Origin: Bacteroidota bacterium
Lineage (GTDB): Bacteria; Bacteroidota; Bacteroidia; UKL13-3
Assembly (NCBI GenBank): GCA_027487835.1
Contig: JAIYCU010000013.1
Location: 22,856-86,855, forward strand
Reading direction: 5' to 3'
DNA: 64,000 nt
Part shown: piece after piece, positions 24,766 through 46,508 of the stretch
How the letters are laid out: every line of letters starts with the position of its first letter
Numbering within the stretch: the first letter of the stretch is position 1
The notes under the pieces: model-generated
The model's input: only the letters and a program-made list of their open reading frames with translations
Told to the model about the DNA's origin: nothing
The model's database searches: none
Made by a program: the position numbers and the translations under genes

Positions 24766-24903
24766 AATTTTTGGTTTGATACAAAGAAACCTATGAATAT
24801 TTCCCTCAAGGTAAATCAAACAATAAATTAACATTACCAAATCTTCTCTTAATTATAACCTAAAAATTAACTACATATTAATTGAACGGCTAGCATTTTT
24901 AAA

Positions 24904-24911
24904 TACCTTTG
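24904..24911 (+). promoter_or_regulatory. Bacteroidota -7 promoter element upstream of mnmE
   Basis: TACCTTTG matches TAnnTTTG, 7 bp before the TTG start. Confidence 0.5.
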
Positions 24912-24918
24912 AAGCACT

Positions 24919-26301
24919 TTGAACCCAAATTCTTACCAACCCAACGATACCATTTGTGCTTTGGCAACCCCTGCCGGACTTGGCGCCATTGGCGTAATCC
25001 GCTTAAGTGGAACCAAGGCCATTGCCATTGCAAACCAATGTTTTATAGGCAAGGACCTAACTCAAGTAGCCTCGCATACGGCTCATTTTGGACGCTTGGT
25101 TCAAACCGAAACCATTATTGACGAGGTATTAGCTACCGTTTTTGTTGAACCCAAAAGCTATACAGGCGAAAATACCGTTGAAATTAGCTGCCATGGCTCT
25201 CCGTATATTCAACAGAAAATTCTTGAAACACTGGTTGAAAGGGGCGCACGCTTGGCCCAACCCGGAGAGTTTACCTTAAGGGCTTTCTTAAATGGGAAAT
25301 TAGACCTTACCCAGGCAGAAGCGGTGGCAGATTTAATTGCTTCCGACTCAGAGATGAGTCATAAAACGGCCATGAACCAAATGCGGGGCGGCTTCTCTAA
25401 AGAAATTGCATTGCTCCGCGAAAAGCTCATCAACTTTGCGTCGCTCATTGAATTGGAACTCGACTTTAGCGAAGAAGATGTGGAGTTTGCCAGCCGACCA
25501 GAACTACATACCTTGGTGAGTAACTTGCATGTTATGCTGCGCAACTTGGCAGATAGTTTTAAAACCGGAAATGCCATTAAAAATGGCGTACCTACCGTGA
25601 TTGCTGGCAAACCCAATGCTGGAAAATCTACCTTGCTCAATGCCCTCATCAAAGAAGACAGGGCCATTGTAAGCGATATTGCTGGCACCACCAGAGATAC
25701 CATTGAAGAAGTATTTAGCATTGGCGGAATCAACTTTAGGCTCATAGATACAGCGGGTATCAGAACCCATACTGCTGATTTAATTGAAAGCATTGGCATT
25801 GAAAAAACCTACGAGAAAATTAGGCTGGCAAGTATTGTGGTGTATTTATTTGATGCCATTACCACCAGCCCAGAAAGTTTAGCAAACGAGTTGGCAGAAT
25901 TTAAAACCTTGGATGCCATTGTTATTCCTGTTGCCAACAAAATTGATTTGGCCGAGACAAATGCGCTACAACAAAAGTTTGCAGCCTTTGAGAACCTTAT
26001 TCTGTTAAGTTCTAAAACGCAAGATGGTTTGAACCAATTGTATGAACGCTTGCGAGCAGTGGTAGAAACAGAGGCGGGCAGAGATGATGTCATCATCACC
26101 AATATCAGGCATTTTAAAGCCTTGAGCGATGCCGCGCAATCCTTGGCGCAAGTATTAGAAAGCATGCAGATCAACCGCACAGGCGAGCTCTTGGCCTTCG
26201 ACATTCGCAAGGCCATCTTTCACCTAGGAGAAGTAACTGGGGAAATCACCAATGATGATTTATTAGCGAATATCTTTAGTAAGTTTTGTATTGGGAAATA
26301 G
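24919..26301 (+). CDS. mnmE: tRNA modification GTPase MnmE (TrmE)
   Basis: DTICALAT, SYTGE, GKPNAGKS, DTAG, NKID and C-terminal FCIGK. Confidence 0.98.
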   Translation: MNPNSYQPNDTICALATPAGLGAIGVIRLSGTKAIAIANQCFIGKDLTQVASHTAHFGRLVQTETIIDEVLATVFVEPKSYTGENTVEISCHGSPYIQQKILETLVERGARLAQPGEFTLRAFLNGKLDLTQAEAVADLIASDSEMSHKTAMNQMRGGFSKEIALLREKLINFASLIELELDFSEEDVEFASRPELHTLVSNLHVMLRNLADSFKTGNAIKNGVPTVIAGKPNAGKSTLLNALIKEDRAIVSDIAGTTRDTIEEVFSIGGINFRLIDTAGIRTHTADLIESIGIEKTYEKIRLASIVVYLFDAITTSPESLANELAEFKTLDAIVIPVANKIDLAETNALQQKFAAFENLILLSSKTQDGLNQLYERLRAVVETEAGRDDVIITNIRHFKALSDAAQSLAQVLESMQINRTGELLAFDIRKAIFHLGEVTGEITNDDLLANIFSKFCIGK

Positions 26302-26392
26302 CCATGGACGATTGTCCATGGTTGATGGACGATGGTCCATGGTTGATGGACGATGGTCCATGGTCGATGGTCCATGGTCCATGGTCCATAGT
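26302..26392 (+). repeat. heptamer tandem array (ATGGTCC/ATGGTCG/ATGGACG), ~13 units
   Basis: Starts immediately after the mnmE stop codon; directly visible. Confidence 0.9.
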
Positions 26393-26397
26393 AACAG

Positions 26398-26425
26398 CCG
26401 GTCGCCGAGCCTTAGCCGAGGCGCC
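26398..26425. repeat. short GC-rich REP-like element
   Basis: CCGGTCGCCGAGCCTTAGCCGAGGCGCC resembles Bacteroidota REP-type repeats as I recall them; single copy in this window. Confidence 0.35.
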
Positions 26426-26448
26426 ATGCAGTATTTAGAATCTAACCA

Positions 26449-26522
26449 TACACCCTATTATAGGTATTTAATGTAAGCCGTGGATTGGGCATGTTTGAAT
26501 AAAAACAAATCAAACAAACCGG
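26449..26522 (+). repeat. palindrome module, copy 1 (variant ending AAACAAATCAAACAAACCGG)
   Basis: TACACCCTATTATAGGTATTTAATGTAAGCCGTGGATTGGGCATGTTTG; similar to copies 2-4. Confidence 0.8.
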
Positions 26523-26720
26523 GACGGTAGGGTGCGGCTGGGATCCAACGGAAGAGCGAACTTGAAAGATTCCGGCATGAGCGGCGTTGGGCTGTGCGAC
26601 AAGGAATCTTTTAAGTTGGTTCCGTTGGGGGCCTTTTTTGGTTACTTTTTTGGCCAAACAAAAAAGTAACAAGAGCAAAAGAGCTAAGCCAATGTATGAA
26701 GCAAAATTTCGATAGTAAAA
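26523..26720. other. ~200-bp GC-rich structured insertion (MITE-like or ncRNA)
   Basis: Stems CCAACGGAA/TTCCGTTGG and AACTTGAAAGATTCC/GGAATCTTTTAAGTT, plus hairpin GTTACTTTTTTG-gccaaa-CAAAAAAGTAAC. Absent between the paralogous copies 3 and 4. Confidence 0.55.
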
Positions 26721-26736
26721 TGATTGTGCAACAATT

Positions 26737-26825
26737 ACACCCACTTATAGGTATTTAATGTAAGCGGTGGATTGGCTATGTTTGTTTTAATAAGCGATAT
26801 AGTTTAGGGTATTGAATGGTTATGC
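26737..26825 (+). repeat. palindrome/promoter/attI-like module, copy 2
   Basis: ACACCCACTTATAGGTAT, TATGTTTG at 26777, ends GGGTATTGAATG|GTTATGC with GTT at 26819. Confidence 0.85.
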
Positions 26826-26919
26826 GAAACCCTTAGTCGACATAGGAACTTCAAACATTGTATCTTTGAACGATCAGTTAAAAAAAAATAAATTAATCTA
26901 ATTTTAAAATTCAAACAAA

Positions 26920-27792
26920 ATGAATAAACAACTACTAAAAATAATGTATGCTTTCATCGTTACAGCAATGATGTATACTTCAAGTGCAATTGCACAAATT
27001 GTTTACACGGATGTGAATCCTGATTCAACTTTGTACTGTAGCAATTGTACTTTAAACTATAATCTAGATTTAAATAATGACACAAATAACGATTTCATTT
27101 TAACAACATTTCACTATGCACCTCCCCAAAAAGGTATAAGTAAACAAAGCCAAGTAACTGCCAGTCCATTAAATGGCAATGCTATAAAAGATACTTTGGT
27201 TAATTCCATTAATGTTTCAATTCCTTTACAATTTAATACTGTAATTGACAACAACTTGTTATTAAACCAATCCTGGCAAACATCGGGACCACAAATTTTG
27301 AAAAATGGTGTATTCGACGGGGGCTCTGATGATGTAGTTTGGGGACTATGGGACAGTTTAACAGATTATTATTTAGGATTAAGAATATTGCAATCAGGGC
27401 AAGCATACTATGGTTGGGTGAGATTGAGGGTTGATATATCAATTTATTATGCCTCTGTTATTATAAAGGATTATGCTTTCAACTCCATTCCCAACCAACC
27501 CATTCTTGCAGGGCAAACAGTTGCAACAGGAATAATCGAAAATTCATTTGCTTCATCAATGAATCTTTTCCCTAATCCAGCCTCAAATCATCTCACCATC
27601 GATTTAGGTAGCAACAACAAAAAGTTTCAAGTAACTATTGCAGATATTACTGGAAAAGTCATGTACACTACCATGGCAACAGAAACACAAAAAGTAGAAG
27701 TGAACACAAACGATTTTGCAGAGGGAATTTATGTTGTGCAAATTCAATCAGAAGAATTTATTGAGAAGAAGAAATTTATCATAAAAAAATAA
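26920..27792 (+). CDS. T9SS type A sorting domain protein (cassette 1)
   Basis: Signal peptide, QIVYTDVNPD, YGWVRL, LFPNPA...GIYVVQI sorting domain; has its own TATCTTTG motif at 26861. Confidence 0.85.
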   Translation: MNKQLLKIMYAFIVTAMMYTSSAIAQIVYTDVNPDSTLYCSNCTLNYNLDLNNDTNNDFILTTFHYAPPQKGISKQSQVTASPLNGNAIKDTLVNSINVSIPLQFNTVIDNNLLLNQSWQTSGPQILKNGVFDGGSDDVVWGLWDSLTDYYLGLRILQSGQAYYGWVRLRVDISIYYASVIIKDYAFNSIPNQPILAGQTVATGIIENSFASSMNLFPNPASNHLTIDLGSNNKKFQVTIADITGKVMYTTMATETQKVEVNTNDFAEGIYVVQIQSEEFIEKKKFIIKK

Positions 27793-27834
27793 AGTATTAG
27801 CGCAATTTAAACACGCGAATCTTTGCTTTCGGTC

Positions 27835-27929
27835 GGGTATTCGCATAAAAGCACCTACCCAAAAGGCAGGGTTTCGAGTTCCAAAGACAGTTTTGTGGTA
27901 ACAGAAGAATCAGTTCACCCAAGTTAATT
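27835..27929 (+). other. truncated attC-like site closing cassette 1
   Basis: GGGTATTCGCATAA(A) complements the cassette start GTTATGCGAAACCC; followed by AGCACCTACCCAAAAG; the right arm appears deleted. Confidence 0.6.
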
Positions 27930-28076
27930 TACACCTATCCCCTATTTTAAATTTACCCACTTACAGGTATTTAATGAAAGTAGTAGATTTAGCATGTTTA
28001 AATGAAAACAAATCAAACAAACCGGATTTTGCACCAATGACACCCACTTATAGGTATTTGATGAAAGCCATGGATT
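27923..28076 (+). repeat. palindrome modules, copies 3 and 4 (tandem)
   Basis: GTTAATTTACACC...TACCCACTTACAGGTAT...AAACAAATCAAACAAACCGG, then CACCCACTTATAGGTATTTGATGAAAGCCATGGATT. Confidence 0.8.
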
Positions 28077-28137
28077 AAAAATTGGAAACCTAACTAATTT
28101 TTATTTCTTTCGAACTAACCATAAAACCAAAATAGTT

Positions 28138-28650
28138 ATGAAAGATCAAATCACCTTAGACCGCATTAAATTAATGCACCCCTTACTTAGGGCAGAAGTT
28201 ACAGAAATGTACCACGAAATATCCCTAGCCTTAACTGGCAGAGCCATTTGTAGGTTTGCCTATACCCTAAGAACTTTTAAAGAACAAGATGAGTTATTTG
28301 CCATTGGCCGAACCAAGCCAGGCAAGAAAGTTACCAATGCCAAAGGTGGCCAAAGCTACCATAACTATGGCTTGGCCTTTGACATTGTATTATTGGTGGA
28401 TAGCAAAGGCACGGGCAAGTTTGACAAAGCCAGCTGGGAAACCAATGTCGACTTTGACCGTGATGGCCGTGCAGATTGGCATGAGGTGGTAAGCATTTGC
28501 AAACGCTATGGCTGGGAATGGGGCGGCGACTGGAAATTCACCGACCTCCCCCACTTCCAAAAAACCATGGGTAAATCTGTCATGCAATTGAAGCAGTTGG
28601 TAGCGGCTGGTAAAGTGGCCCTCAAAAACACACCTTATCCTTTATTATAG
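28138..28650 (+). CDS. M15-family peptidoglycan peptidase (CwlK/endolysin-like)
   Basis: LRT..EQ..L...GRT, VTNAKGGQSYHNYGLAFD, WGGDW...DLPHFQ. Confidence 0.9.
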   Translation: MKDQITLDRIKLMHPLLRAEVTEMYHEISLALTGRAICRFAYTLRTFKEQDELFAIGRTKPGKKVTNAKGGQSYHNYGLAFDIVLLVDSKGTGKFDKASWETNVDFDRDGRADWHEVVSICKRYGWEWGGDWKFTDLPHFQKTMGKSVMQLKQLVAAGKVALKNTPYPLL

Positions 28651-28740
28651 TTCAATATATAAATGCCTAGGGTTCGGTTTGAACGCAAGGCATTTTTTTA
28701 AACTAATATTTTTCAACACCTTTATAAAAAAATAAACAAC

Positions 28741-29070
28741 ATGGGAAAATTTGTAATCACTAAAAGAGCCAATGGCGAGTACCAGTTTAACTTGAAAGCC
28801 GGCAATGGACAAACTATTTTAAGCAGCGAAGGCTATACCACTAAAGCTGGCTGCGAAAACGGCATTGAATCGGTAAGGGTAAACGCACAAGCAGATGAGC
28901 GCTTTGAGCGCAAAACCTCCACCAACGATAAGCCTTACTTTAACCTAAAAGCCAGCAATGGGCAGGTAATAGGCAAAAGCGAACTCTACGAAAGCGAAGC
29001 CGCCCGCGACAATGGCATCGAATCAGTACAGAAGAATGCAGTGGATGCTAGCATAGAAGAAATTAGCTAA
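28741..29070 (+). CDS. YegP/DUF1508 family protein
   Basis: Two tandem FNLKAxNGQxI..SExY...NGIESV repeats. Confidence 0.9.
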   Translation: MGKFVITKRANGEYQFNLKAGNGQTILSSEGYTTKAGCENGIESVRVNAQADERFERKTSTNDKPYFNLKASNGQVIGKSELYESEAARDNGIESVQKNAVDASIEEIS

Positions 29071-29127
29071 AACAAAGCTTTAAAAAGCGCCTTAAAAGGC
29101 TATTTCCTCAGGCACAAAAGCCAAACC

Positions 29128-29254
29128 TTAATTATTTAACAACCCAATTCTCTTTTTCCAAAAAATACCCATTTATGGGTATAGGATGGGAAATGGGATT
29201 GGGTATTTTTGATTTAATAACCGATAGAAAGTTTCGGGTTTTAAATAGTTATAA
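29128..29254 (+). repeat. palindrome/promoter/attI-like module, copy 5
   Basis: ATACCCATTTATGGGTAT (29165-29182), TATTTTTG at 29204, CCGATAGAAAGTTTCGGG, GTT at 29248. Confidence 0.85.
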
Positions 29255-29275
29255 GCAACCTCAAAAACATTAAAA

Positions 29276-30031
29276 ATGGAATACAATTTAAAGGAACATG
29301 GTGACCATTTAGAAAGAAATTATAATGACTTTATTAGAAAATATTTCAATAATTATGAAGACGTTTGGAAAATATTCATAGGAAATAAAGGAAATGACAC
29401 AAAAGCGGAAATAGTTGGGATTTCAATAGATTTAGACAACAAACGACAAAATTTTTCTGAGCATACTTATACAATATTGCAATCACTGATTCTTATACAC
29501 AGATTAATTGAAAAAGGAGAATTTACTAAGACCATTAGCAATACAACGGAGGACATTTTAGACTTACAAAATAATTTGCTTTTGTTTTTTACACATTTGG
29601 GACGAATTAACGATAACGTAGAATCCGCCACCCATTTTATAGACCTGAAATCCTCTGAAACAACAGAATTACTAAAAGAGTATTATCATCAACGACATAT
29701 TTTAGTGCATGGGAAAATGGTTCCAATTATATTTAAGCAAAATGGAGAAATTCTTTTACCTGAATTGAGCAAAAATGGAACAGACATTACAGGCTGGTAT
29801 CATAAGGAGCATTCTTGGAAGGACATAAATGAGCTGCCGAAATCAGTACTTGAACAAACAGCTATAAAACTATATTATGAACTAATACCAAAACTCAATG
29901 AAATATTTGGAGTATTCAAAAAGAAAATTGAAAACGATCTAAAATGTAAAGGTTTACAAATTAAATTCAAGCAAGAAAACTATCATGAAATTCACAGACA
30001 TGGCAGCGGTTCTTTTGACAATTCACCTTAG
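29276..30031 (+). CDS. hypothetical protein with HEPN-like Rx4H motif (cassette 2)
   Basis: Helical 251-aa protein containing RHILVH. Confidence 0.5.
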   Translation: MEYNLKEHGDHLERNYNDFIRKYFNNYEDVWKIFIGNKGNDTKAEIVGISIDLDNKRQNFSEHTYTILQSLILIHRLIEKGEFTKTISNTTEDILDLQNNLLLFFTHLGRINDNVESATHFIDLKSSETTELLKEYYHQRHILVHGKMVPIIFKQNGEILLPELSKNGTDITGWYHKEHSWKDINELPKSVLEQTAIKLYYELIPKLNEIFGVFKKKIENDLKCKGLQIKFKQENYHEIHRHGSGSFDNSP

Positions 30032-30094
30032 AAACCAATAAGTGTATATGGACTTGATAAAACTGACATAAAGAAATGGGGAAAATGAGGCAGC

Positions 30095-30226
30095 TTATAA
30101 CAGCACCTAAAAGAAATAGGTGGTTTTGTGTTACGCAGAAACATTTTTGGTGCATGGAAATTAGTGTCTTCGCAACTATATTCGTGCTGAAAGGCACCAA
30201 CTTCTTGTAGCTGCAAATCGTTATGC
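30095..30226 (+). other. intact attC-like site
   Basis: TTATAAC...GTTATGC ends; inner arms GCACCTAAAAGAAATAGGTG / CACCAACTTCTTGTAGCTGC pair at 16 of 20 positions. Confidence 0.75.
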
Positions 30227-30235
30227 CTAATTTAT

Positions 30236-31216
30236 ATGAACCGAAAGAGTTTATTTAATCAACTTGAATTAGCATATGCGCCTTTGACTGCATATGAGTT
30301 TGCTGTTAACAGGGACGACAAAATGATAGAAAGAGCCCTTAAAAATGCAAGTCTATATATAATTGGACAACGACCTGTGATTACCTTTGAAAAAGTAATA
30401 CCTGATTATGATCAATATCAACTACATTTTGAAATACATCAAAAGAACAATGAAAATATTTTATCATGTAAACTTCCCTTAATCCAACCAATCGTTGGAT
30501 CCAATGTTGATGATACTATTTATGTTGCATTCAATTATCTTAACAAAACGCTTCGTCAGAATACTCCACCATTTAATAATATTCATGGATTTTCACTTTC
30601 AAATCACACGGAGATAGGGAATGATTTTTTGATTTGGTTTTCACCTGAAAAGCTTTTGCAAAATTGGTGGAAAGGACATATTAACTGTGAAATCAAAGGA
30701 GATTTTAAATCATTTTTAAAATATAAAGTTCACTATGTTGGCAAAGCTACCAAGCAAGGAATTTTAAAACGGTTGACAGGTCATTCCACATTTCAGGATA
30801 TTCTATCATTGGAATCCCCAGTTACTAAGAAGCAATTACCAGCAAATGAAATTGTAATTCTTCCATTTGGCTTTCAAGACAACTTATTTATAGAAGAATT
30901 TGGATTGAAATCGACCAAAAAAGGTATGGTAGCTGCAATGCAAGGTGAAAATTTCCCTGACCAAGAAAAAATATTCCTTGATGCAGAAAAAGCTCTTATA
31001 AAGGCCATTCAGCCGACCTATAATAAAGAAATGTTTAATAGCTACCCTGAAAGCAAAGATGGACTTTATAATGAAAAGTTAAATGTAATTTCATATACTT
31101 TTATGGACCCAATATCATTGAATTATGCAAAAGGAGAAATTAATGGAGGCTTGACTCCAATTGGCGGCGATACAATATTGATTATTGAAAATATAGAATT
31201 TAAGCTTGTAAAATAA
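30236..31216 (+). CDS. hypothetical protein, possible divergent GIY-YIG-like nuclease (cassette 3)
   Basis: HYVGKA...KRLTGH...AEKALI...PTYN pattern. Confidence 0.45.
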   Translation: MNRKSLFNQLELAYAPLTAYEFAVNRDDKMIERALKNASLYIIGQRPVITFEKVIPDYDQYQLHFEIHQKNNENILSCKLPLIQPIVGSNVDDTIYVAFNYLNKTLRQNTPPFNNIHGFSLSNHTEIGNDFLIWFSPEKLLQNWWKGHINCEIKGDFKSFLKYKVHYVGKATKQGILKRLTGHSTFQDILSLESPVTKKQLPANEIVILPFGFQDNLFIEEFGLKSTKKGMVAAMQGENFPDQEKIFLDAEKALIKAIQPTYNKEMFNSYPESKDGLYNEKLNVISYTFMDPISLNYAKGEINGGLTPIGGDTILIIENIEFKLVK

Positions 31217-31227
31217 GGAAAAACTAG

Positions 31228-31355
31228 GCATAACAGCACCCAAAAGAAAATTTCTTCTCGTGGTCCACTGGGAAAAATTTTCTATATTTGATATGCAGGT
31301 TTCACTTACGTTATTCAAATACGGGCTAACTGCGGTTAGATGCTAATCGTTACAA
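31228..31355 (+). other. attC-like site (degenerate or chimeric)
   Basis: GCATAAC-AGCACC...GATGCTAATC-GTTACAA. Confidence 0.6.
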
Positions 31356-31400
31356 ATAATTGTAGTACTACCCTTCATCTATCAACCAAGCAGACAAAAA

Positions 31401-32204
31401 ATGATAACCATTCAAGAACTACTTTTTAATCGCAAGCTTGACAAAGCTGCAAAAATCAAACTCGTAAGACACAAACAAGTTGGTCGAGACTTATACAATC
31501 TTTATCGGACTAACAGACCCGAGTTTTTAGCTTATCAAAACTCACAAACAAAGGATATTTTTAATGGGGTTGACTACATCGTTTCATTTATTGGCGAAGA
31601 AGGTTTGTTATCTAGGTTTATTGGCGTTTACAAACTAACAGACAGAAAAAAATTAGCTGAGGACCATTTTGAATATCAAATGGAAGAAGTGAAGGAATTT
31701 TTTGACGACTTAAAAGAAAGAGTCATTATCAAATGGGAAAATGCAATTTCTTGGCATCAATGGATAAAGAATGAAATGGAAGTGTTAGAAATTCACCCTG
31801 GTCTTCATTACAAACAATTCACAGACTACTCTGACTTCATTCTCAACTTTCACGAACTCAAAGAAATTGTAAGCAAACAATATGGTGACTGGAAAAAAAT
31901 GCTTTCAGTAACCAAAGGCATTTACCTAATCAGCGATACTAAGACCGGTAAACTTTATGTTGGTTCGGCATACGGAGAGGAAGGCATTTGGGGACGTTGG
32001 ACTAATTACGTTTTAACAAACGGACATGGGGACAATAAAACCTTAAAGGAACTTATCACTGACGACCCAAGCCACGGAAATAATTTTCAATTCTCAATTT
32101 TAATGTTGTTACCTCGAACAATTACGGCAGACGAAGCCATTAAAAAAGAACGCCTTTTTAAAAATAAATTAGGCACAAACTCATTCGGACTTAACAACAA
32201 CTAA
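31401..32204 (+). CDS. GIY-YIG nuclease family protein (cassette 4)
   Basis: GIYLISD...LYVGSAYG...GRW..Y, KE..FK..LG.....LN.N. Confidence 0.9.
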   Translation: MITIQELLFNRKLDKAAKIKLVRHKQVGRDLYNLYRTNRPEFLAYQNSQTKDIFNGVDYIVSFIGEEGLLSRFIGVYKLTDRKKLAEDHFEYQMEEVKEFFDDLKERVIIKWENAISWHQWIKNEMEVLEIHPGLHYKQFTDYSDFILNFHELKEIVSKQYGDWKKMLSVTKGIYLISDTKTGKLYVGSAYGEEGIWGRWTNYVLTNGHGDNKTLKELITDDPSHGNNFQFSILMLLPRTITADEAIKKERLFKNKLGTNSFGLNNN

Positions 32205-32240
32205 AATAACAACTAGGCTGAAAGGACGAAGAAAAACTAA

Positions 32241-32310
32241 TATTAACAAGCGTTTGGGGCAATAAGTGTCAACCATTCCCCTACTTCCCTAAGCACTAAA
32301 AACGTTAATT
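32241..32310 (+). other. short (70-bp) attC-like site
   Basis: TATTAAC...GTTAATT with imperfect inner arms; its GTT is the first triplet of module copy 6. Confidence 0.65.
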
Positions 32311-32415
32311 TATAGCCACCCCTTTTTTAAAATATACCCACTTATGGGTATTTTATGAGTGACATGGATTGGGTATGTTTGTTTTAATAGCCGATGTGAA
32401 GTTTCGGGTATTGAA
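32304..32415 (+). repeat. palindrome/promoter/attI-like module, copy 6
   Basis: ATACCCACTTATGGGTAT (32334-32351), TATGTTTG at 32374, CCGATGTGAAGTTTCGGGTATTGAA; the terminal GTT is missing. Confidence 0.85.
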
Positions 32416-32466
32416 AAACTGTGAATAAGCTTATAGAATCGTTACTAACAGACAGAAATTATAAAA

Positions 32467-33342
32467 ATGAAATTAGTTAAACCAGAAAAATTAAATCTCT
32501 TAACACACAAAGAACTTAATGAAAGTTGGGTGCAACAAGTTATTGCCGACGATCCAACAATTTTAGGACTTGGCGACCTAATTTTAAAAGATAAAGAAAG
32601 AATACACCCAAAAGCAGGTCGCCTTGATATTTTACTTCAAGATGCAGAAAGTAAAAGAAGATATGAAGTTGAAATCCAACTTGGGAAAGTGGACGAAAGC
32701 CATATAATTAGAACTATTGAATATTGGGATATTGAAAGAAAACGTTATCCTCAATATGACCATTGTGCCGTTATTATTGCTGAAGACATTACAAGCAGGT
32801 TTTTAAATGTAATTGGGTTATTTAATGGATATATACCATTAATAGCAATTCAAATGTCTGCTTATCAATTAAATGATAATGAAGTTTCTTTGATATTCAC
32901 AACTGTTCTTGATGAACTCAATTTAGGACTCGTGGAAGAAGATGAAGAAACAAAAGAAGTCACTGACAGAAATTATTGGGAAACTAATAAAGGAACAAAA
33001 CAAACGGTTGCATTAGCTGACCAACTTTTGGAAATCGTAAAAGAATTTAGTCCAAATTTAGAATTGAAATACAATAAGTATTACATAGGACTTGCGAAAA
33101 ATGGACAACCAAATAACTTTGCAATTTTCAGAGCCAAGAAAAGTAGTTTGTTACTAGAAATTAGACTAAAACAATCACCTGAAATCCAAGACAAACTAGA
33201 TGAAGCAAAACTTGACACAATGGATTATGAAAACAAATGGGGACGTTATAGAATTAGAGTAGATAAAAACGATATTACAAAACATAAAGAACTTTTAAAG
33301 AACTTAATGAAACAATCATATGGAATGGTAACTGACGAATAA
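32467..33342 (+). CDS. NucS/EndoMS-like PD-(D/E)XK nuclease + DUF5655-like domain (cassette 5)
   Basis: GRLDILL...YEVEIQLG..DESHIIRTIEYW; C-terminal LKYNKYYIG. Confidence 0.7.
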   Translation: MKLVKPEKLNLLTHKELNESWVQQVIADDPTILGLGDLILKDKERIHPKAGRLDILLQDAESKRRYEVEIQLGKVDESHIIRTIEYWDIERKRYPQYDHCAVIIAEDITSRFLNVIGLFNGYIPLIAIQMSAYQLNDNEVSLIFTTVLDELNLGLVEEDEETKEVTDRNYWETNKGTKQTVALADQLLEIVKEFSPNLELKYNKYYIGLAKNGQPNNFAIFRAKKSSLLLEIRLKQSPEIQDKLDEAKLDTMDYENKWGRYRIRVDKNDITKHKELLKNLMKQSYGMVTDE

Positions 33343-33354
33343 AAAAAGCAGAAA

Positions 33355-33487
33355 GCACAACAACAGTTACACGAGATTTGGGTTTTAGGTAAACTATAAA
33401 TTTGGTTTTGTACTTAAAAGTTAAGGCATAAATCGAAGAGTTAAGGCATGCTTTTTCCAAACCTTGGGAAGCTGCAAACAGTGATGT
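33355..33487 (+). other. degenerate attC-like site
   Basis: GCACAAC...CCAAACCTTGGGAAGCTGCAAACA-GTGATGT; same GCTGCAAA right arm as the 30095-30226 site, with GTT mutated to GTG. Confidence 0.55.
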
Positions 33488-33521
33488 AATATTTTAGAAA
33501 ACCTGACAGATAACAAGAACT

Positions 33522-35351
33522 ATGGCAATATTAAGTCCGACATTTGAGGCAATAAAAAGGCAAAAGGTACAGCCGACAGAAGGCGAATGGACTTTATTAA
33601 ATTTCTTGTTGGACAACTTGGACGACACTTATCAAATTTGTTATCAACCATATCTTAATGGCGATAATCCCGACTTTGCAATTATGCGAAAAGAAAGCGG
33701 CGTTTTACTCATCGAAGTTAAAGACTGGAATTTAAATCAATATTATGTTGATGAAAAAACAAAATGGAGATTACAAAAGGACAACACGCCAATTAAATCA
33801 CCACTTAATCAAGTTGAGAAATATAAATCAAATTTATTTCATTTACATATAGAAGAACTTTTCAAAAAAAGTGTAAAAAGCAAAAATCATTGGGCAACTG
33901 TAAATTGTGCAGTCTATTTCCACAATGCAACTGAACAAAATTTAACAAGTTTCTTACTTGACGGTTTTGATAAACAAGAAGATGAGTCATATAGAAAATT
34001 TGTTAGTTATTTTGGGTTATTAGGCTATAACTCTCTTACCAAAGACAAACTAAATTCGCTTCTAACAAGATTTTGGCTAAACAAAACATCATATTACTTT
34101 GATGAAACACTTTACAACAGCTTTCAACGGTATTTAAAACCTCCAATTCATCAATTAGAAGAAGGGATAAATATAATTTATTCAAAAGAACAGCAAGAAC
34201 TAATCAGAAGTGAAGTACGACCAAGAAGAAAAATAAAAGGAGTTGCCGGAAGTGGGAAGACTTTGGTATTAGCAAAACGAGCAGTAAATGCTTACAAAAG
34301 AACTGATGATCAAATTTTAGTTTTAACCTATAATCTATCACTTAAAAATTATATTCACGACAGAATTAGTGATGTTAGAGAAGAATTTAATTGGACTAAT
34401 TTTTACATAACAAATTACCATCAATTTTTCAAAACACAAGCAAACAATTACAATTTAGAAATTCAAAATCTTGGTGCCTGGCAGGATACTTCTTTCTTTG
34501 AAAGTGTAAAAAAAAACATAAAAAAATATGATGTAGTTCTAATAGATGAAATTCAAGATTATATGCAATCTTGGATAGACATTATTACAACTTACTTCAC
34601 TCATTCAGAAACAGAGTTTGTCGTTTTTGGAGACGAAAAACAAAATATATACGAAAGAGAACTTGACGAAAACAATGAAATTATTGTTCGACAAATTCCT
34701 GCACGTTGGAACAAATCTTTAAATGTGTCGCATCGTTTTGCGAGTAATATTGGAAACATTGCAATAAAATTTCAAAAAAAAATATTTGGACTTAAATATG
34801 GTGCAGACGAATTAAAGGTAATGTCTCAATTTGATTTTGAAAAACGGATAATCGAATACCACTTTTTCCATGCATTTACAGCAGATCTTTTATTTGAAAA
34901 GGTTTACAATGTTTTGGAACGTAATCAAATTCACTCTTCTGATGCAGGAATCTTATGCTCAAAAGTTGAAATTTTAAGAGCTATTGACTTTTCTATACGA
35001 ACAATAAAACACGAAAACACTTCAACTACATTTGAAAGTCAAGAAGAATATTTAGAATACAAAGACAATAATTCCAATATTGAAGAAATTAGAAGATTAA
35101 GAAAGAATCATTTTTATATGAAAACTGGAACTGTCAAACTTTCAACTATTCATAGTTTTAAAGGTTGGGAAATAGACACTCTATTTTTATTCATTGAAAA
35201 AGAAGAAAACGAAAAGGAATTTGTAAATGCCGAACTAATTTATACTGGACTTACAAGAGCAAGAAAAAATTTAATTATTTTCAATTTAGATAACAGAAAG
35301 TATGACGAATTTTTTAAAGCTGAAATTGAAATAAAATTTGAACACAAATAA
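33522..35351 (+). CDS. NERD nuclease + SF1 (UvrD-like) helicase (cassette 6)
   Basis: PDF...LIEVKDW nuclease motif, Walker A GVAGSGKT, DEIQD, FGDEKQNIY, TIHSFKGWE, YTGLTRA. Confidence 0.9.
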   Translation: MAILSPTFEAIKRQKVQPTEGEWTLLNFLLDNLDDTYQICYQPYLNGDNPDFAIMRKESGVLLIEVKDWNLNQYYVDEKTKWRLQKDNTPIKSPLNQVEKYKSNLFHLHIEELFKKSVKSKNHWATVNCAVYFHNATEQNLTSFLLDGFDKQEDESYRKFVSYFGLLGYNSLTKDKLNSLLTRFWLNKTSYYFDETLYNSFQRYLKPPIHQLEEGINIIYSKEQQELIRSEVRPRRKIKGVAGSGKTLVLAKRAVNAYKRTDDQILVLTYNLSLKNYIHDRISDVREEFNWTNFYITNYHQFFKTQANNYNLEIQNLGAWQDTSFFESVKKNIKKYDVVLIDEIQDYMQSWIDIITTYFTHSETEFVVFGDEKQNIYERELDENNEIIVRQIPARWNKSLNVSHRFASNIGNIAIKFQKKIFGLKYGADELKVMSQFDFEKRIIEYHFFHAFTADLLFEKVYNVLERNQIHSSDAGILCSKVEILRAIDFSIRTIKHENTSTTFESQEEYLEYKDNNSNIEEIRRLRKNHFYMKTGTVKLSTIHSFKGWEIDTLFLFIEKEENEKEFVNAELIYTGLTRARKNLIIFNLDNRKYDEFFKAEIEIKFEHK

Positions 35352-35360
35352 AAAAAACAA

Positions 35361-35515
35361 CACATAAGACGAGTTTTACATAAGAGGCGATTCAGCGCTC
35401 ATAATCAGTTTTGACTTTAATTAAATATTTAGTTTTCAAAAAAAAACATTAGTACTAAAATGAAAGTAAGCGCTACAAAATCCGCTTCTTCACCAAGCGC
35501 CAAAAATCGATAATT
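35361..35515 (+). other. degenerate attC-like site
   Basis: CACATAA(G)...AAGAGGCG / CGCTTCTT...CAAGCGCCAAAAATC-GATAATT; runs directly into module copy 7. Confidence 0.45.
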
Positions 35516-35630
35516 TATAGCTAACCCCTATTTTTAAATATACCCACTTATGGGTATTTTTTGAGTGAGGGGGATTGGGTATGTTTGTTTTAATAACCGA
35601 GGTGAAGTTTTGATTATTGAATGGTTATGC
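35509..35630 (+). repeat. palindrome/promoter/attI-like module, copy 7
   Basis: ATACCCACTTATGGGTAT (35540-35557), TATGTTTG at 35580, ATTGAATG|GTTATGC with GTT at 35624. Confidence 0.85.
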
Positions 35631-35687
35631 TTAATTCATTAGTAATAGTTAAATTTCTAGAAAACAAATATAAAACTTGAAATAATT

Positions 35688-36653
35688 ATGGGAGCTGTTG
35701 TATTTCCAATTCAAAAATTTTACGACCAGACTTCTGAGTTAGTTGGTATAAAGTCAGGACTTCTTTTAAGTGACACAGATATAAACAGCATCTTAAAAGA
35801 GAAATTTGAGGACACCTTTCTTGACAATCAAAGCAAAGATCAAATTATCAGATTAAGATCTGAGGCGATTGAATTAATGATAAAATATATAAGGATTAGG
35901 ATAGGTAATATCCCATCTGCTCCCAAAGTGAACTACTACAAAATATTAGCAAAGTATCTTAAAGACATAGAAGATTTTAAAATTCACGGTTTATATCTTG
36001 GTTATGCCATAAATCAAACCAATTTAGGTCTAGAAATGACGTATGAATCTCTAAAGAAGGAAATTTCCAAAAACAAAAAGTTAAATGATGAATTAATCGA
36101 TGCTCTAACGTTTACTATTATGGAACAAATTGACGATGGAATTACCTTTCCTCCTTCATATAATCTTGACGGTGCAGCTCCTCTACAATCTTTATTTGAA
36201 CTCGAAGTATTCCCTATGTCTGACAATACATTCATTGATCAAAAGTTCATTGACTACTTAGCAGTTAATGGAAATGAAATTGAAGAAATCCATTGGAGAA
36301 ACTTTGAGCGATTTGTCGCTGAATATTTCCAGAGACAAGGACTGACGGTGGTTTTAGGCTCTGGACAAAATGATGGAGGTGTTGATATTCGAGTATTCAA
36401 CGAAAAGAATACAAAAGATCCCCTGATATTAATTCAATGCAAAAGATATAAGTCTGAAAATAAAGTATCAATTGAGACCGTTAAAGCTTTCCACTCGGAT
36501 GTTGTCTATGAAAATGCGAAACTAGGATTAATAGCAACGACAAGTAGAGTTGCGACTGGAGGGAAGAAAGTTGTTAATGCCCGGAACTACAACATTTCCG
36601 TAGCAGAGAAGGAAAATGTCAAAAAGTGGGCCACAACAATGTGGAATAAATGA
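35688..36653 (+). CDS. Mrr-family restriction endonuclease (cassette 7)
   Basis: WRNFERFVAEYF...DGGVDI...IQCKRY...IATTS (Mrr_cat). Confidence 0.9.
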   Translation: MGAVVFPIQKFYDQTSELVGIKSGLLLSDTDINSILKEKFEDTFLDNQSKDQIIRLRSEAIELMIKYIRIRIGNIPSAPKVNYYKILAKYLKDIEDFKIHGLYLGYAINQTNLGLEMTYESLKKEISKNKKLNDELIDALTFTIMEQIDDGITFPPSYNLDGAAPLQSLFELEVFPMSDNTFIDQKFIDYLAVNGNEIEEIHWRNFERFVAEYFQRQGLTVVLGSGQNDGGVDIRVFNEKNTKDPLILIQCKRYKSENKVSIETVKAFHSDVVYENAKLGLIATTSRVATGGKKVVNARNYNISVAEKENVKKWATTMWNK

Positions 36654-37007
36654 GCAAAAAACTAACGGTTTTATGCTCTTGAAGACTTGAATGCTAATTT
36701 GAAATCACACCCACTTTATAGAAAAGTGGAACGACCTCCTAACAGCCAAAGTTTCGCTGTGCCTGCAAGCCAAGCCATGAATTGAAAATCATCGAATACC
36801 TATAAAACAATTAACCTAATGTGATAAACTCTAGTTGAAAGCAGATTGCTTTGGATAGTACTAACATAGACCAACATGATTGTACTAACTATTTTCTCCA
36901 ATTCCTGAATTTCATTTAACTAATTTCTTTAAATTCGAAACGATCTAAAAGACATTTTGCTCCTTGCATTTGAAAGGTTTGAGATAGGACGCAATTTTTA
37001 TTAAATT

Positions 37008-37436
37008 ATGGAAATAGGTGATTATGATTTATATGAAGGTGGGAAAATAACCTTTAAAGCGACTGTAGGTAAAGTTATCTATAGGATAAAAAGGGCTCCT
37101 AAAAATATTATGCAGTCAGGTGATGACTCATTCTTAACCAATTTTTGGGATGAGGTTTGTGTTCAAGTGCAAGATGAATATTGGACTTGCTGGAGCTTAT
37201 ATGAGTATTATATTGAACAAACAATTTTGAGTATTATAGATGCTTTAACTTACAACAAAAGGAGAGCGTTGTCTTATTTTTTGTATTGGGAAAAAGAATT
37301 TGAAGAGCCTCATGAAGATTTAGGATATTACCCAGACTTGTGCCAAGAGATGTTACTAAACGAGATTTTGGAATTGGCATTAAATTATAGAAACTTAAAG
37401 ATTCAAAAATATTTGGATAGTCGTTATTTAGATTAA
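37008..37436 (+). CDS. hypothetical protein
   Basis: 142-aa ORF with an AT-rich leader; no recognisable motif. Confidence 0.55.
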   Translation: MEIGDYDLYEGGKITFKATVGKVIYRIKRAPKNIMQSGDDSFLTNFWDEVCVQVQDEYWTCWSLYEYYIEQTILSIIDALTYNKRRALSYFLYWEKEFEEPHEDLGYYPDLCQEMLLNEILELALNYRNLKIQKYLDSRYLD

Positions 37437-37453
37437 TGCAAGTTTGAAATCTA

Positions 37454-37912
37454 ATGGAATTTGAAAATTTATATAATAAAAGTCTAGTTAAAGAGCTTAA
37501 AAAACTTCTCAATATGATAGACGATACATTTTCACACCTAAAAGAAAATGGTCATGATGTTTCCTTGTTTGAAATGGGAGAAAGGAAAAGTAAACAAAAC
37601 AAGATGGATTGGAGTGATTATGGCTTCTATCTTTACAGTAGGGATGAGAAAACAATTATTTTTATTGGAATGTGGCTAAGCTATTGGGCGCAAACTGGTA
37701 ACCCACTTACCTTATTCTTATACTCCTATGTTGACAATAAAGATAGGAAACTAAAGCATGAAAGGTTAAACTCATACATTACCAAACGTAAGGAAATTTT
37801 CAATGACCTTGATGAATTTCAAGAATATCTAAATATTAGCATTAATAAGCCCTTATTCAATAATTTTAATGATTATATTAGTCTTATTCAAAGGGTTTAT
37901 GGTTTTACCTAG
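37454..37912 (+). CDS. hypothetical protein
   Basis: 152-aa ORF, co-directional, 17 bp after the previous gene. Confidence 0.55.
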   Translation: MEFENLYNKSLVKELKKLLNMIDDTFSHLKENGHDVSLFEMGERKSKQNKMDWSDYGFYLYSRDEKTIIFIGMWLSYWAQTGNPLTLFLYSYVDNKDRKLKHERLNSYITKRKEIFNDLDEFQEYLNISINKPLFNNFNDYISLIQRVYGFT

Positions 37913-37967
37913 GCAATTAGCATGAAAGTATAATGTTAATCAAAAAATTTAACTTTAAATTACCCTA

Positions 37968-38978
37968 ATGGCGACAAACAAACATGCAACCATCCGTTAC
38001 CTTGCTTTAGATAGATGCTTTAGCAATTTCGGCAAAAGGTTTTTTATTGAAAATTTGATAGAGGCATGTAACCAAGCCATATACGACTATTCTGGCATCA
38101 ATGACGGAATCAAGCGTAGACAAATTTTTGATGATATCGCCTATATGGAGAGTAGCAGTGGTTGGGAAATTCCATTAGAAAGACATAAAGATGGAAGAAG
38201 GGTATATTATAGATATTCTGATAAATCATTTTCCATCAAAAGCCAAGGAATTAATCAAGCTGAGGCGGAACAATTAAAAGAGACCTTGAATATTTTGACT
38301 CGATTCAAAGGAATGCCTCAATTTGAATGGATAGAAGAAATGCGAGTAAGGCTTGAAGAAACATTTAAGTTAAAAGGGAATGCCCAATCGACAGTTGGGT
38401 TTGAACAGAACCCTTATCTAAAAGGATTAAGCCACTTCACTGGGTTGTTTAACGCGATTCAAAATGAAGTAGCTCTTCAAATACGTTATCAGGGATTTAA
38501 GCAAAGTAAGCCTTCACATGTTATTTTACATCCTTGGTATTTAAAACAATATAATAATCGATGGTTTCTATTCGGACTAAATGATGAATTTAAAACTATC
38601 ACAAACTTTGCACTTGACAGAATTATTGAGTTTGAGGATTCAAAAGTGAAGTTTTATAAAAATGAGGAGCTAAACTTCGATGAATATTTTGAGGATGTAG
38701 TGGGTGTAACTGTTAAGAAAGATGCTCCAATAGAAACGCTTTTGATAAAAGTAAATAAAGAAATTTGGCCATATATTGAGAGTAAACCATTACATGGTTC
38801 TCAAAAAGTAAAAAATAAAACAGAAGCAGAAGTTATTATTGAACTCAGTATGCAGGTTAATCATGAACTGCTAGCATTGTTGTTTTCCTATATGGATCAA
38901 CTTGAATTAGTGGAGCCCGACTCGGTTAGACAATCGATTAAACATGTTTCTAATTCCATATATAAAAAGTATTTTTAA
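37968..38978 (+). CDS. WYL-domain transcriptional regulator (wHTH-WYL-WCX)
   Basis: N-terminal RY..LDRC...RRQIFDDI..M wHTH; HPWYLKQYNNRWFLFG, ALDRI, KPLHGSQ, VEPDSVR. Confidence 0.92.
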   Translation: MATNKHATIRYLALDRCFSNFGKRFFIENLIEACNQAIYDYSGINDGIKRRQIFDDIAYMESSSGWEIPLERHKDGRRVYYRYSDKSFSIKSQGINQAEAEQLKETLNILTRFKGMPQFEWIEEMRVRLEETFKLKGNAQSTVGFEQNPYLKGLSHFTGLFNAIQNEVALQIRYQGFKQSKPSHVILHPWYLKQYNNRWFLFGLNDEFKTITNFALDRIIEFEDSKVKFYKNEELNFDEYFEDVVGVTVKKDAPIETLLIKVNKEIWPYIESKPLHGSQKVKNKTEAEVIIELSMQVNHELLALLFSYMDQLELVEPDSVRQSIKHVSNSIYKKYF

Positions 38979-38980
38979 CT

Positions 38981-39016
38981 ATGCACTTGCACTGCACAAT
39001 AAGATATAACCTTTGT
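38981..39016 (+). promoter_or_regulatory. candidate WYL operator plus near-consensus -7 element
   Basis: TGCA-N7-TGCA (ATGCACTTGCACTGCACA) followed by ATAACCTTTG, in the 58-bp gap before the MTase-HK gene. Confidence 0.4.
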
Positions 39017-39036
39017 TGAACATTAAATGAGATGCT

Positions 39037-42823: not shown

Positions 42824-42835
42824 TTAGATAATATT

Positions 42836-46506: not shown

Positions 46507-46508
46507 GT

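Follow-up and report, generated by a model that had tools for sequence, protein, structure and literature searches.

A CALIN-like cassette array and its putative recombinase family in Bacteroidota

Here we describe a cassette array at 26.8–37.9 kb of the window (the whole analysed stretch of 64,000 nucleotides), located behind mnmE in a freshwater Bacteroidota bacterium. We read it as a set of integron-type cassettes without an integrase, namely a CALIN, belonging to an integron-like system widespread in Bacteroidota; this reading, which includes the loss of the integrase, the decay of the sites and a stockpile of defence genes, has in our estimate a probability of about 0.8. A CALIN is a cluster of attC sites without an integron integrase (IntegronFinder definitions, Cury et al. 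2016, PMC4889954). In the window, three sites at E ≤ 1e-3 by our own covariance model (R1) lie within 3.4 kb, and a profile search of the whole genome placed all four of its PF00589 (tyrosine recombinase) matches outside the window, none of them at the integron-integrase cut-off. These results bear out the CALIN-like array proposed in an earlier note on this DNA. The co-directionality described there holds as well, given that every gene-like ORF of at least 100 aa between 26920 and 54040 is on the + strand. The window itself contains no attI-type site next to an integrase, and seven Rfam matches in 24000–40000 all fall far under the gathering scores. The array adjoins a larger defence island.

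Cassette sites and their complementary ends

The array comprises seven cassettes, six spacers and several copies of a ~90-nt repeat, termed REP (Table 1). By R1, two spacers are strong, one is moderate and three are decayed, and three of the six pass E ≤ 1e-3. Among the five attC-like spacers of the earlier note, those at 30095 and 31228 proved strong and that at 33355 moderate, and those at 35361 and 32241 gave weak model matches. The decay it had noticed is evident at the crossover bases, with GTT changed to GTG (33481) and to GAT (35509) and AAC changed to AAA at the end of cassette 1 (27847–27849, the altered base being 27849); three of the six spacers are weak by the model. The remnant behind cassette 1 keeps an intact 5' half (GCATAAA-AGCACCTACCCAAAAGGCAGGG...) and a decayed R' (AATCAGTTCA), with the L' arm and the middle gone.

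Table 1. Features of the array and its left flank, in window coordinates
Feature	Position	Strand	Evidence
mnmE, tRNA modification GTPase, conserved left flank	24919..26301	+	Pfam MnmE_helical, TrmE_N, MMR_HSR1; 85% identical in G009 and G013
REP A, partial (5' half), then inserted hairpin element	26452..26522	+	Repeat search; nhmmer E 6.7e-7 (C27:49307)
REP B, full ~90-nt copy, -7-like TATGTTTG box, ends at junction G26819	26739..26826	+	nhmmer E 2.6e-20, alignment
Cassette 1: 290-aa T9SS-sorted protein (26920-27792)	26819..27849	+	Por_Secre_tail; start complements own end with one indel
attC remnant	27835..27920	+	Comparison with C27:2506-2631; weak model match 27869-27940, 11.5 bits
REP C and REP D, two partial copies	27955..28100	+	nhmmer E 0.015 and 0.0012
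M15 peptidase (28138-28650) and DUF1508 protein (28741-29070)	28138..29070	+	Pfam
REP E, full copy, ends at junction G29248	29167..29256	+	nhmmer E 5.7e-19
Cassette 2: 251-aa protein (29276-30031)	29248..30101	+	Own-end complementarity 14/16
attC site, well preserved	30090..30231	+	R1 134 bits, E 9e-33; one of 8 training sites
Cassette 3: 326-aa protein, no family match (30236-31216)	30220..31234	+	Own-end complementarity 13/14
attC site, well preserved	31223..31360	+	R1 95.7 bits, E 7e-23; one of 8 training sites
Cassette 4: UzuA (Uzume defence, GIY-YIG; 31401-32204) and short degenerate site (32236-32315)	31349..32315	+	PADLOC 9.7e-92; site 8.9 bits, E 2.1
REP F with 5' extension (GTTAATTTATAGCC...), junction G32441	32304..32440	+	nhmmer E 5.8e-23; repeat search
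Cassette 5: DUF5655 / PDC-S18-like protein (32467-33342)	32441..33363	+	Pfam; PADLOC 4.9e-13
attC site, moderately decayed, R' = GTG (33481)	33352..33490	+	25 bits, E 1.4e-4
Cassette 6: NERD nuclease and UvrD-type helicase (33522-35351)	33481..35389	+	PADLOC C3a187 NERD+UvrD 4.2e-59; Pfam
attC site, strongly decayed, R' = GAT (35509)	35382..35521	+	13.5 bits, E 0.13
REP G with 5' extension, full TTTG-N16-TATGTTTG promoter-like motif, junction G35624	35509..35631	+	nhmmer E 8.1e-22; motif search
Cassette 7: Mrr-like restriction endonuclease (35688-36653)	35624..36668	+	Mrr_cat 4e-21; PADLOC
End of variable part: REP-like fragments (36706-36721, 36766-36784) and 2 ORFs without family (37008-37436, 37454-37912)	36654..37967	+	

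The earlier note had claimed that each cassette start complements its own end. Two pairs are exactly as described: GTTATAAGCAACCTCA (29248) matches TGAGGCAGCTTATAAC (30086) at 14 of 16 complementary bases, and GTTATGCCTAATTT (30220) matches AAACTAGGCATAAC (31221) at 13 of 14; in both cases the observed place is unique at that score among the ~63,985 + strand positions of the window. The third pair, 26819/27835, is imperfect, reaching 6 of 14 in the register first given and pairing once the register is moved by 1 base and a single indel is allowed (TTATGCGAA-ACCC against TTATGCGAATACCC). The later cassettes (31349, 32441, 33481 and 35624) show no clear match of this kind. We then compared positions 5–16 of each cassette start with the reverse complement of its own end, for cassettes bounded by two model matches in this and other genomes. 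Across 51 cassettes, own ends scored a mean of 8.3 out of 12, against 4.0 out of 12 in 2550 non-own pairings, and a score of at least 9 was reached by 34 of the 51 own pairs as opposed to 36 of the 2550 non-own pairs. Own-end complementarity is thus in excess of chance.

R1 was built from eight sites of this genome, including 30090–30231 and 31223–31360, whose alignment has 142 columns and 20 stem pairs, 11 of them covarying. In the genome it returns 27 rows, corresponding to ~26 sites on nine contigs. In a wider set of 85 sites, drawn from 46 sources, pairing covers 91.0% of the cells, compared with 64.8% in shuffles and 31–39% with the partner slid; both sides have changed in 440 cells (146 in shuffles), with compensatory change in 20 of 24 pairs, all of these counts leaning towards the modelled structure because R1 was trained on the genome itself and the alignment (A5) was fitted to the structure. 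The family therefore consists of attC-type sites, namely imperfect inverted repeats (R''/R') whose pairing is kept despite sequence change. Sites were found in 50 of 61 relatives and in 59 of 151 genomes of the phylum, related genomes among them not being independent samples. TAAC and GTTA are near-invariant, but conservation does not extend to positions 5–7 of GTTRRRY. Site length hardly departs from 126 nt, the L-box (AGCACCTAC...GTAGCTGC) is conserved, and an A·C mismatch is kept in 84 of the 85 sites. No clear single-base bulges were seen among them, conserved mismatches being present instead. The bottom strand, putatively the one recombined, gives the more stable fold in 64 of 82 cases (mean −23.8 vs −21.3 kcal/mol). 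Within the window, the folds of five spacers on both strands (ten folds) are no more stable than shuffles (z −2.8 to +0.9); the two best sites gave z of −1.1/−1.1 and −2.8/−1.9, the single significant fold being 31221–31362 on the + strand (z −2.8). The case for a hairpin accordingly comes from the family and not from the window by itself.

The cognate recombinase family

In relatives, the sites lie directly behind an IntI/XerA-like recombinase without the IntI-specific additional domain, in line at the family level with the non-canonical recombinase suspected in the earlier note. Among 80 loci of this recombinase, all 66 + site matches are downstream of the gene (186.6 kb of sequence) and co-directional with it, and none is upstream (398 kb). 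Where at least 1.5 kb of sequence follows the gene (43 loci), 32 loci have a site. Furthermore, an attI-type junction, ...ATA(C)AA|GTTA, occurs 20–85 nt behind the stop codon in the relatives and at the recombinase pseudogene locus of the genome itself, and there the start of the first cassette complements its own R''. The family is large, at least 7995 clusters matching at E ≤ 1e-30 among 8000 candidates scored, and its locus was found in cultured Flavobacterium, Pedobacter (for example P. cryotolerans) and Paenimyroides (for example P. aquimaris).

The recombinase is most similar to the integron integrase VchIntIA. Its predicted structure (pLDDT 83) has 2a3v, the VchIntIA structure, as the best fold match (E 2e-17) and XerA as the second. 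Alignment to 2a3v falls into two blocks, separated by ~20 residues where 2a3v has 62, and no helix is predicted at residues 298–314. Consistently, the TIGR02249 profile gives 193–210 bits, below its cut-off of 265, and aligns only at profile positions 2–180 and 238–315; the best NCBIfam model is NF040815 (202–233 bits, cut-off 220). The family thus lacks the additional domain near patch III by which IntegronFinder and Messier & Roy recognise the integrase of a complete integron. It has an extra N-terminal alpha/beta domain and, in common with VchIntIA, a C-terminal SPFD/SPLD motif. Its chemistry may differ from that of integrons, given the lack of a domain described as necessary for integron function.

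Taken together, these features suggest the following model of cassette movement. A cassette would exist as a transient circle carrying one imperfect palindrome of ~126 nt, arranged as R''(TAAC)–stem–variable loop–stem–R'(GTTA). The array would be headed by the gene of a dedicated tyrosine recombinase, co-directional with the cassettes, and this enzyme would recombine the folded site at G|TT; the partner would be either a second cassette site or the attI that closely follows the recombinase gene. Such recombination would split the palindromic site, as a result of which the initial bases of the integrated cassette would complement its own end.

The only cognate gene in the genome, C27:4080–4972, lies 45 kb upstream of the array and has a five-site array of its own. 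It is a pseudogene; in comparison with the orthologue in the relative G009, ~67 aa are missing with a frameshift, together with 13 aa including the GKGKKD hairpin. The service in trans envisaged in the earlier note may therefore have applied in the past, and probably no longer does. Since the sole recombinase copy is a pseudogene and half of the window sites are decayed, the array is probably frozen. An array that is still active, moved in trans by XerC/XerD, by an integrase of 430 aa located at the C7 contig edge or by one that an incoming element brings along, appears improbable. Two window sites are intact (134 and 96 bits), ~26 sites persist on nine contigs despite the broken integrase, 11 of the 50 site-bearing relatives show no cognate recombinase at E ≤ 1e-25, and the assembly is in 46 contigs, so that a recombinase copy could sit in a gap. 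Half of the window sites are nevertheless decayed at the crossover bases, no link of the Xer proteins or of the C7 integrase to the sites was found, and in the 80 loci every site match stands behind the dedicated recombinase. Contigs from four metagenome runs show the array (26000–38500) unchanged; coming as contigs from a single study, they are weak evidence and cannot count either way. A contig joint 30231→31223 was considered as an excision and not counted, since its shorter side, 27 bases at 90% likeness, derives from other site copies.

It is also very unlikely that the array is the relic of a canonical integron, whose IntI with the additional domain was lost, and that the domain-less recombinase adjoins such arrays by chance. 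The origin of CALINs by loss of intI is well known, as a passage of PMC8618304 has it, and the relative G017 has a TIGR02249 match above the cut-off (307 bits). Such an IntI occurs in only one of the 61 genomes, however, and that of G017 is in a 6-kb locus without an R1 site, its gene appearing split. In contrast, the sites of the domain-less recombinase (32 of 43 loci) are always downstream and co-directional, with the junction 20–85 nt behind the gene.

The REP repeat, cargo and turnover between strains

Four sub-arrays are headed by REP, which ends at the cassette junction. The earlier note did not mention REP, though REP supplies two of its three listed junctions. Using nhmmer, we found 17 copies at E ≤ 1e-3 in the genome, on contigs that also hold arrays, and each mapped copy is followed by a co-directional ORF with the exception of one partial copy near a contig end. 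The motif TTTG-N14-21-TAnnTTTG is present in 12 of the 17, against an expectation of ~0.007 per 110 nt, and a −7 box was counted by eye in 15. In its core REP resembles a sigma-A promoter of the Bacteroidetes type, and the 3' end appears to mimic the L'–R' arm of the cassette site. REP might hence be a portable promoter-plus-landing-site that drives otherwise promoterless cassettes in this lineage only; among 61 genomes, it occurs in this one and its two closest relatives. It is often located behind a truncated site. Own-end complementarity backs only two REP junctions (26819 and 29248), and on other contigs several groups of genes headed by REP lack a site match. Two other assignments of REP were rejected. 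As the attI of the lineage, it is absent beside the integrase in G009, G005, G033, G025 and G039; as an ordinary cassette site, it would need an R'' that pairs with its 5' end (GTTAATTTATAGCC), and none was seen.

The cargo appears largely anti-phage, judged by protein families: Uzume, a NERD–UvrD helicase-nuclease, an Mrr-like and a PDC-S18-like protein. The Uzume assignment relies on its UzuA protein, matched at full length (PADLOC PDLC03973, 9.7e-92). The 251-aa protein of cassette 2 has no family match in Pfam, PADLOC or NCBIfam. Homologues of the 326-aa protein of cassette 3 were found in four of 400 other genomes of the class, two of the four adjoining a site match; homologues L108 and L109 have none. 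GC content is 31.8% over the cassettes at 29248–36653 vs 36.4% for the genome. The M15 peptidase–DUF1508 pair has a GC content of 45%, unlike the other cassettes, with no site behind it, and the peptidase is largely deleted at the corresponding place in G009. A check of gene order across strains, suggested in the earlier note, showed differences in content: G009 is 96% identical over 37969–43189, synteny returning at 37969, and has different genes between REP and the WYL gene. The 20 kb that follow mnmE in G009 gave no site match. In G033, an identical cassette is present in tandem, duplicated at site boundaries.

A further account, without any cassette mobility, takes the palindromes and REPs for ordinary intergenic repeats (terminators, promoters or MITE-like elements) spread within the defence island, for which speak the terminator-like place of the sites just 3' of stop codons, the resemblance of REP to a dispersed promoter repeat, a MITE-like hairpin element in the region and the lack of significant stability of the window's own sites, but it is highly improbable, because repeats spreading as units would not yield complementarity confined to a cassette's own start and end (8.3 vs 4.0 of 12; 34/51 vs 36/2550), and it leaves unexplained both the strict linkage and orientation to one recombinase family and the tandem copy of an entire cassette, bounded by the sites.

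Significance and comparison with known systems

Integrons have been regarded as nearly absent from Bacteroidota. The IntegronFinder 2.0 paper lists one complete Bacteroidota integron, in Salinibacter ruber, earlier finds being only In0 elements, and IntI is described in part of the literature as defined by the additional domain, which is held necessary for activity. We found no description of the present system in the literature; the supplements to the IntegronFinder 2.0 paper may list Bacteroidota CALINs. A wider proposal, which we put forward tentatively at slightly less than even odds, is that Bacteroidota own a very common integron class, with an integrase lacking the IntI domain, conserved 126-nt hairpins whose stem extends past the crossover and sites in ~40% of the sampled genomes, to which standard detection is probably blind. 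The window would then be a decaying, defence-stocked array of this class, and one lineage would have added a portable promoter-plus-landing-site repeat that expresses sub-arrays far from the integrase. If this is true, cassettes can recombine without the additional domain, and gene capture of the integron type is a major, so far unrecognised way in which genes spread and defences turn over in a highly abundant phylum; the same genetic logic as in integrons would be carried out by a recombinase without that domain. Three questions become directly testable, namely by what means cassette sites are recognised when the I2 region is missing, what share of the Bacteroidota flexible genome and anti-phage repertoire travels in cassettes, and whether an entire class escapes present integron surveys.

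As in integrons and CALINs, the cassettes are short, co-directional and mostly single-gene, and integrase-less arrays are scattered over the genome. Integrons also share the imperfect-palindrome sites, the ...AAC and GTT... ends, the G|TT crossover and an attI beside a tyrosine recombinase, and sedentary chromosomal integrons share site families of homogeneous sequence. In contrast to integrons, the recombinase lacks the IntI-defining additional domain and carries an extra N-terminal one; the sites are near-constant at 126 nt, with a conserved L-box, an asymmetric internal R–L loop (1 nt on one side against 5 nt on the other) and conserved mismatches in place of clear bulges; only GTTA of GTTRRRY is conserved; and complementarity extends ~9–12 bases beyond the 7-bp core. 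Integrons whose integrase is co-directional with the array, with attI downstream, have a similar layout, whereas their integrases pass as IntI with the additional domain and the present family does not.

XerA/Xer proteins (NF040815; PDB 5hxy, 4a8e) resemble the recombinase in the best NCBIfam model, the second-best fold and the lack of an insertion in the catalytic domain. Unlike them, it is not a single-copy dif resolvase; it heads cassette arrays and has the extra N-terminal domain, the SPFD/SPLD motif and VchIntIA as its best fold match. REP and the Pc promoter plus attI of integron platforms alike place an outward promoter-like element directly upstream of the cassette joining point, but REP is dispersed (17 copies), does not lie beside the integrase and differs from the attI found in its lineage. 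Finally, Vibrio sedentary chromosomal integrons, described as anti-phage stores in a preprint (bioRxiv 10.1101/2024.07.02.601686), share with the present array the compact defence cassettes. The two differ in phylum and in integrase type, and the present array is small and decaying, its defence role being suggested by its genes.

Gene content and turnover of the array

The window spans positions 22856-86855 of contig C27 in a genome of 3.38 Mb (36.4% GC, 46 contigs), which its T9SS sorting domains assign to Bacteroidota. The array at 26.8-36.7 kb comprises nine genes, and all genes from mnmE to 54040 lie on the + strand. The cassettes at 29248-36653 have a GC content of 31.8%, compared with 38-39% for the flanks. 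In the defence island next to the array, genes for DUF6998, GIY_YIG_2, GmrSD and AAA_15/DUF3696 proteins are inserted between HsdS and HsdR. Tandem repeats also occur in the window: a 579-nt unit is present three times inside the gene for a 1500-aa PhoX/PKD/T9SS-sorted protein (22962-24663), and 14/21-nt repeats (ATGGACGATGGTCCATGGTTG) directly follow the mnmE stop codon (26290-26400), with similar repeats at 56382-56560 and a comparable tract 3' of mnmE in the related genome G013.

Features of the array and its surroundings (window positions, except for the recombinase gene on contig C27)
Feature	Position	Strand	Remark
Split recombinase gene	C27:4080-4972		then five co-directional sites of the same family
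mnmE	24919-26301		array lies downstream
REP, main copies	26739, 29167, 32336, 35542		about 90 nt
REP, partial copies	26452, 27955, 28042
T9SS-sorted protein	within 26.8-36.7 kb	+
M15 peptidase	within 26.8-36.7 kb	+
DUF1508 protein	within 26.8-36.7 kb	+
Two proteins, 251 and 326 aa	within 26.8-36.7 kb	+	no family match
UzuA, Uzume defence system	within 26.8-36.7 kb	+	PADLOC 9.7e-92
DUF5655/PDC-S18-like protein	within 26.8-36.7 kb	+
NERD-UvrD helicase-nuclease	within 26.8-36.7 kb	+	PADLOC 4.2e-59
Mrr-like endonuclease	within 26.8-36.7 kb	+
Weak site	27869		R1 11.5 bits
Site	30090-30231		R1 134 bits
Site	31223-31360		R1 95.7 bits
Weak site	32236		R1 8.9 bits
Site	33352-33490		R1 25 bits
Weak site	35382		R1 13.5 bits
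Adjoining defence island	37968-54040		WYL regulator; N6-methylase fused to HATPase_c domain; type I R-M
HsdM	42836
HsdS	45202
HsdR	50942

Comparison with the relative G009, 96% identical over 37969-43189, revealed turnover of the array. Between REP and the WYL gene, G009 has one different ORF and a decayed site, whereas our genome has six cassettes; REP B and the T9SS cassette are likewise missing from G009, as is most of the peptidase. Apart from sites and REPs, no stretch of 29276-36653 had a match in the 24 remaining genomes of the genus (E<=1e-10). Among 400 further genomes of the class, four encode a homologue of the 326-aa protein, in two cases adjoining a site match. In the single-contig relative G033, two identical 510-nt cassettes, each made up of a gene for a 114-aa membrane protein plus a site, lie in tandem (locus L013, 6378-7398), which amounts to duplication of an entire cassette at site boundaries.

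A structured family of cassette sites

The spacers at 30095 and 31228 share a near-identical architecture (...ATAAC-AGCACC...GCTGC-AAATC-GTTA), the TAAC-to-GTTA distance being 126 and 122 nt, respectively. Aligned with six further copies from the same genome, they form a 20-pair stem in which 11 pairs covary. A covariance model built from these eight sequences, R1, gave 27 matches on nine contigs of this genome. In an alignment of 85 sites (46 sources), 91% of cells pair, against 64.8% in shuffles and 31-39% with slid partners, the latter being the fairer comparison given that the alignment was fitted to the model and is thus biased to structure. Compensatory changes occur in 20 of the 24 pairs. 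The irregularities are also fixed: an A.C mismatch is present in 84 of the 85 sites, and the R and L boxes are separated by an asymmetric loop (1 nt versus 5 nt). In 64 of 82 sites the bottom strand, on which A.C mismatches become G.T, folds more stably. Folded singly, the window's own sites showed no significant stability.

The earlier note had claimed that each cassette start complements its own end, and all its sequence strings were located where it had placed them. Two of its three pairs (14/16 and 13/14) are just as it gave them, each being unique in the 64-kb + strand; the first (26819/27835) does not hold as written, for it aligns only after shifting by one base and allowing one indel, and AAA now stands in place of its AAC. 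We then compared starts with the reverse complements of ends in the 51 cassettes having a model match at both bounds. Start positions 5-16 matched their own end at 8.3 of 12 bases (n=51), versus 4.0 of 12 for non-own ends (n=2550), with a two-base mismatch recurring at positions 10-11. Own-end complementarity is predicted if crossover occurs between the G and the TT of a once-continuous hairpin, and it is hard to explain by repeat spread.

REP elements heading the sub-arrays

REP, a repeat of about 90 nt that the earlier note did not mention, has 17 copies (E<=1e-3) on four contigs (C27, C22, C14 and C9), and in the mapped loci a co-directional ORF follows every copy but a partial one near a contig end. 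Its best-conserved core, TTTG-N16/19-TA..TTTG, resembles the Bacteroidetes sigma-A consensus (-33 TTTG, -7 TAnnTTTG). Of the 17 copies, 12 have the full motif (expected number about 0.007 per 110 nt) and 15, counted by eye, have the -7 box. The REP 3' end (TTTCGGGTATTGAATG abutting GTTA) is similar to the L'-R' arm of the sites, the junctions 26819 and 29248 fall exactly at it, and a truncated site often precedes REP. We infer that REP is a portable promoter and landing site. Among 61 genomes it is limited to this one, G009 and G013, and is therefore a young, lineage-specific addition outside the general system.

Elsewhere in the genome (C9:1-12000, C14:47000-51000, C22:96000-99000; loci L005-L008), REP heads groups of one to four genes with cassette-like cargo: Pirin, cupins, GNAT, aldo-keto reductase, a PIN/DUF6364 toxin-antitoxin pair, DUF1016 nuclease, NACHT-Mrr, SIR2-like and AAA_13. 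A recognisable site is mostly absent from these groups. Between REP A and REP B lies an element of about 198 nt (26523-26720) with a long imperfect hairpin (CCAACGGAA...TTCCGTTGG) and a T-rich tail, absent from the equivalent REP C-REP D pair. Most genomes of the genus contain copies (about 80-96% identical) at numerous positions, and Rfam gave no match; the element is either MITE-like or a gene for a small RNA.

The partner recombinase and comparison with integrons

Of the four PF00589 matches in the genome, two are Xer-like, one is a 430-aa integrase located at the edge of a contig and one is a split gene; none reaches the integron-integrase cut-off. Relative to its G009 orthologue, the split gene is missing about 67 aa, with a frameshift, and another 13 aa including GKGKKD; it is a pseudogene. 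Upstream of it (C27:5100-5560, outside the window) are about eleven 22-nt direct repeats (GTACCCATGTTAATCCAAGGGG) and three 60-nt repeats, followed by a 282-aa ORF without family and, judged by eye, two putative tRNA genes. These 22-nt and 60-nt repeats may serve the extra N-terminal domain of the recombinase as arm-type binding sites. The 60-nt repeats apparently also occur in G009, to judge from a repeated pattern in a translated frame 5' of the integrase gene there; none comparable were seen upstream of the G033 gene.

In relatives, intact recombinase genes of 350-400 aa lie directly upstream of arrays, the junction of attI and cassette falling 20-85 nt past the stop codon. Their products match TIGR02249 at positions 2-180 and 238-315, skipping 181-237. 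Taking G033 as a worked example, the recombinase scores 193 bits with TIGR02249 (cut-off 265) and 202 bits with NF040815; compared with VchIntIA (2a3v), it has about 20 residues in place of IntI4's 62. Its predicted fold (pLDDT 83) best matches 2a3v (E 2e-17), with XerA second, and has a confident extra N-terminal alpha/beta domain. Canonical IntI occurs in only one of the 61 relatives (G017:C58:1388-2378; 307 bits, apparently split into two frames), with no R1-type site within 6 kb.

In 80 public recombinase loci, all 66 '+' (co-directional) site matches lie downstream of the gene; the upstream DNA, twice as long in total, has none. Where 1.5 kb or more of downstream sequence is available (43 loci), a site is found in 32. 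Record titles name Flavobacterium, Pedobacter, Paenimyroides, Chitinophagaceae, Sphingobacteriaceae, Crocinitomicaceae, Weeksellaceae and others. In 25 of the 80, the contig stops less than 500 nt downstream of the recombinase; repeated sites seem to break short-read assemblies, and if so, such arrays would be hidden in MAG surveys. Sites are present in 50 of the 61 relatives (E<=1e-4) and, in a sample of 151 genomes from across the phylum, in 59 (E<=1e-6). The recombinase family comprises at least 7995 clusters (E<=1e-30) among the 8000 candidates scored, with source names such as 'site-specific tyrosine recombinase/integron integrase', 'site-specific integrase' and 'XerD'.

Taken together, the finding is real, and the earlier reading of an integron-like array with a non-canonical recombinase was largely right. 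The window array is a decaying member of the system and is probably frozen; its interest lies in the system it reveals, Bacteroidota-wide integron-like cassettes with a non-canonical integrase. Full-text literature searches yielded no account of this system; subscription journals or supplements could hold one. Published surveys report integrons as very rare in Bacteroidota. By definition the window array is a CALIN, a cluster of attC sites without an integron integrase. The cassette-associated recombinase falls outside IntI by its defining test; the Bacteroidota cassette system follows the same logic as integrons.
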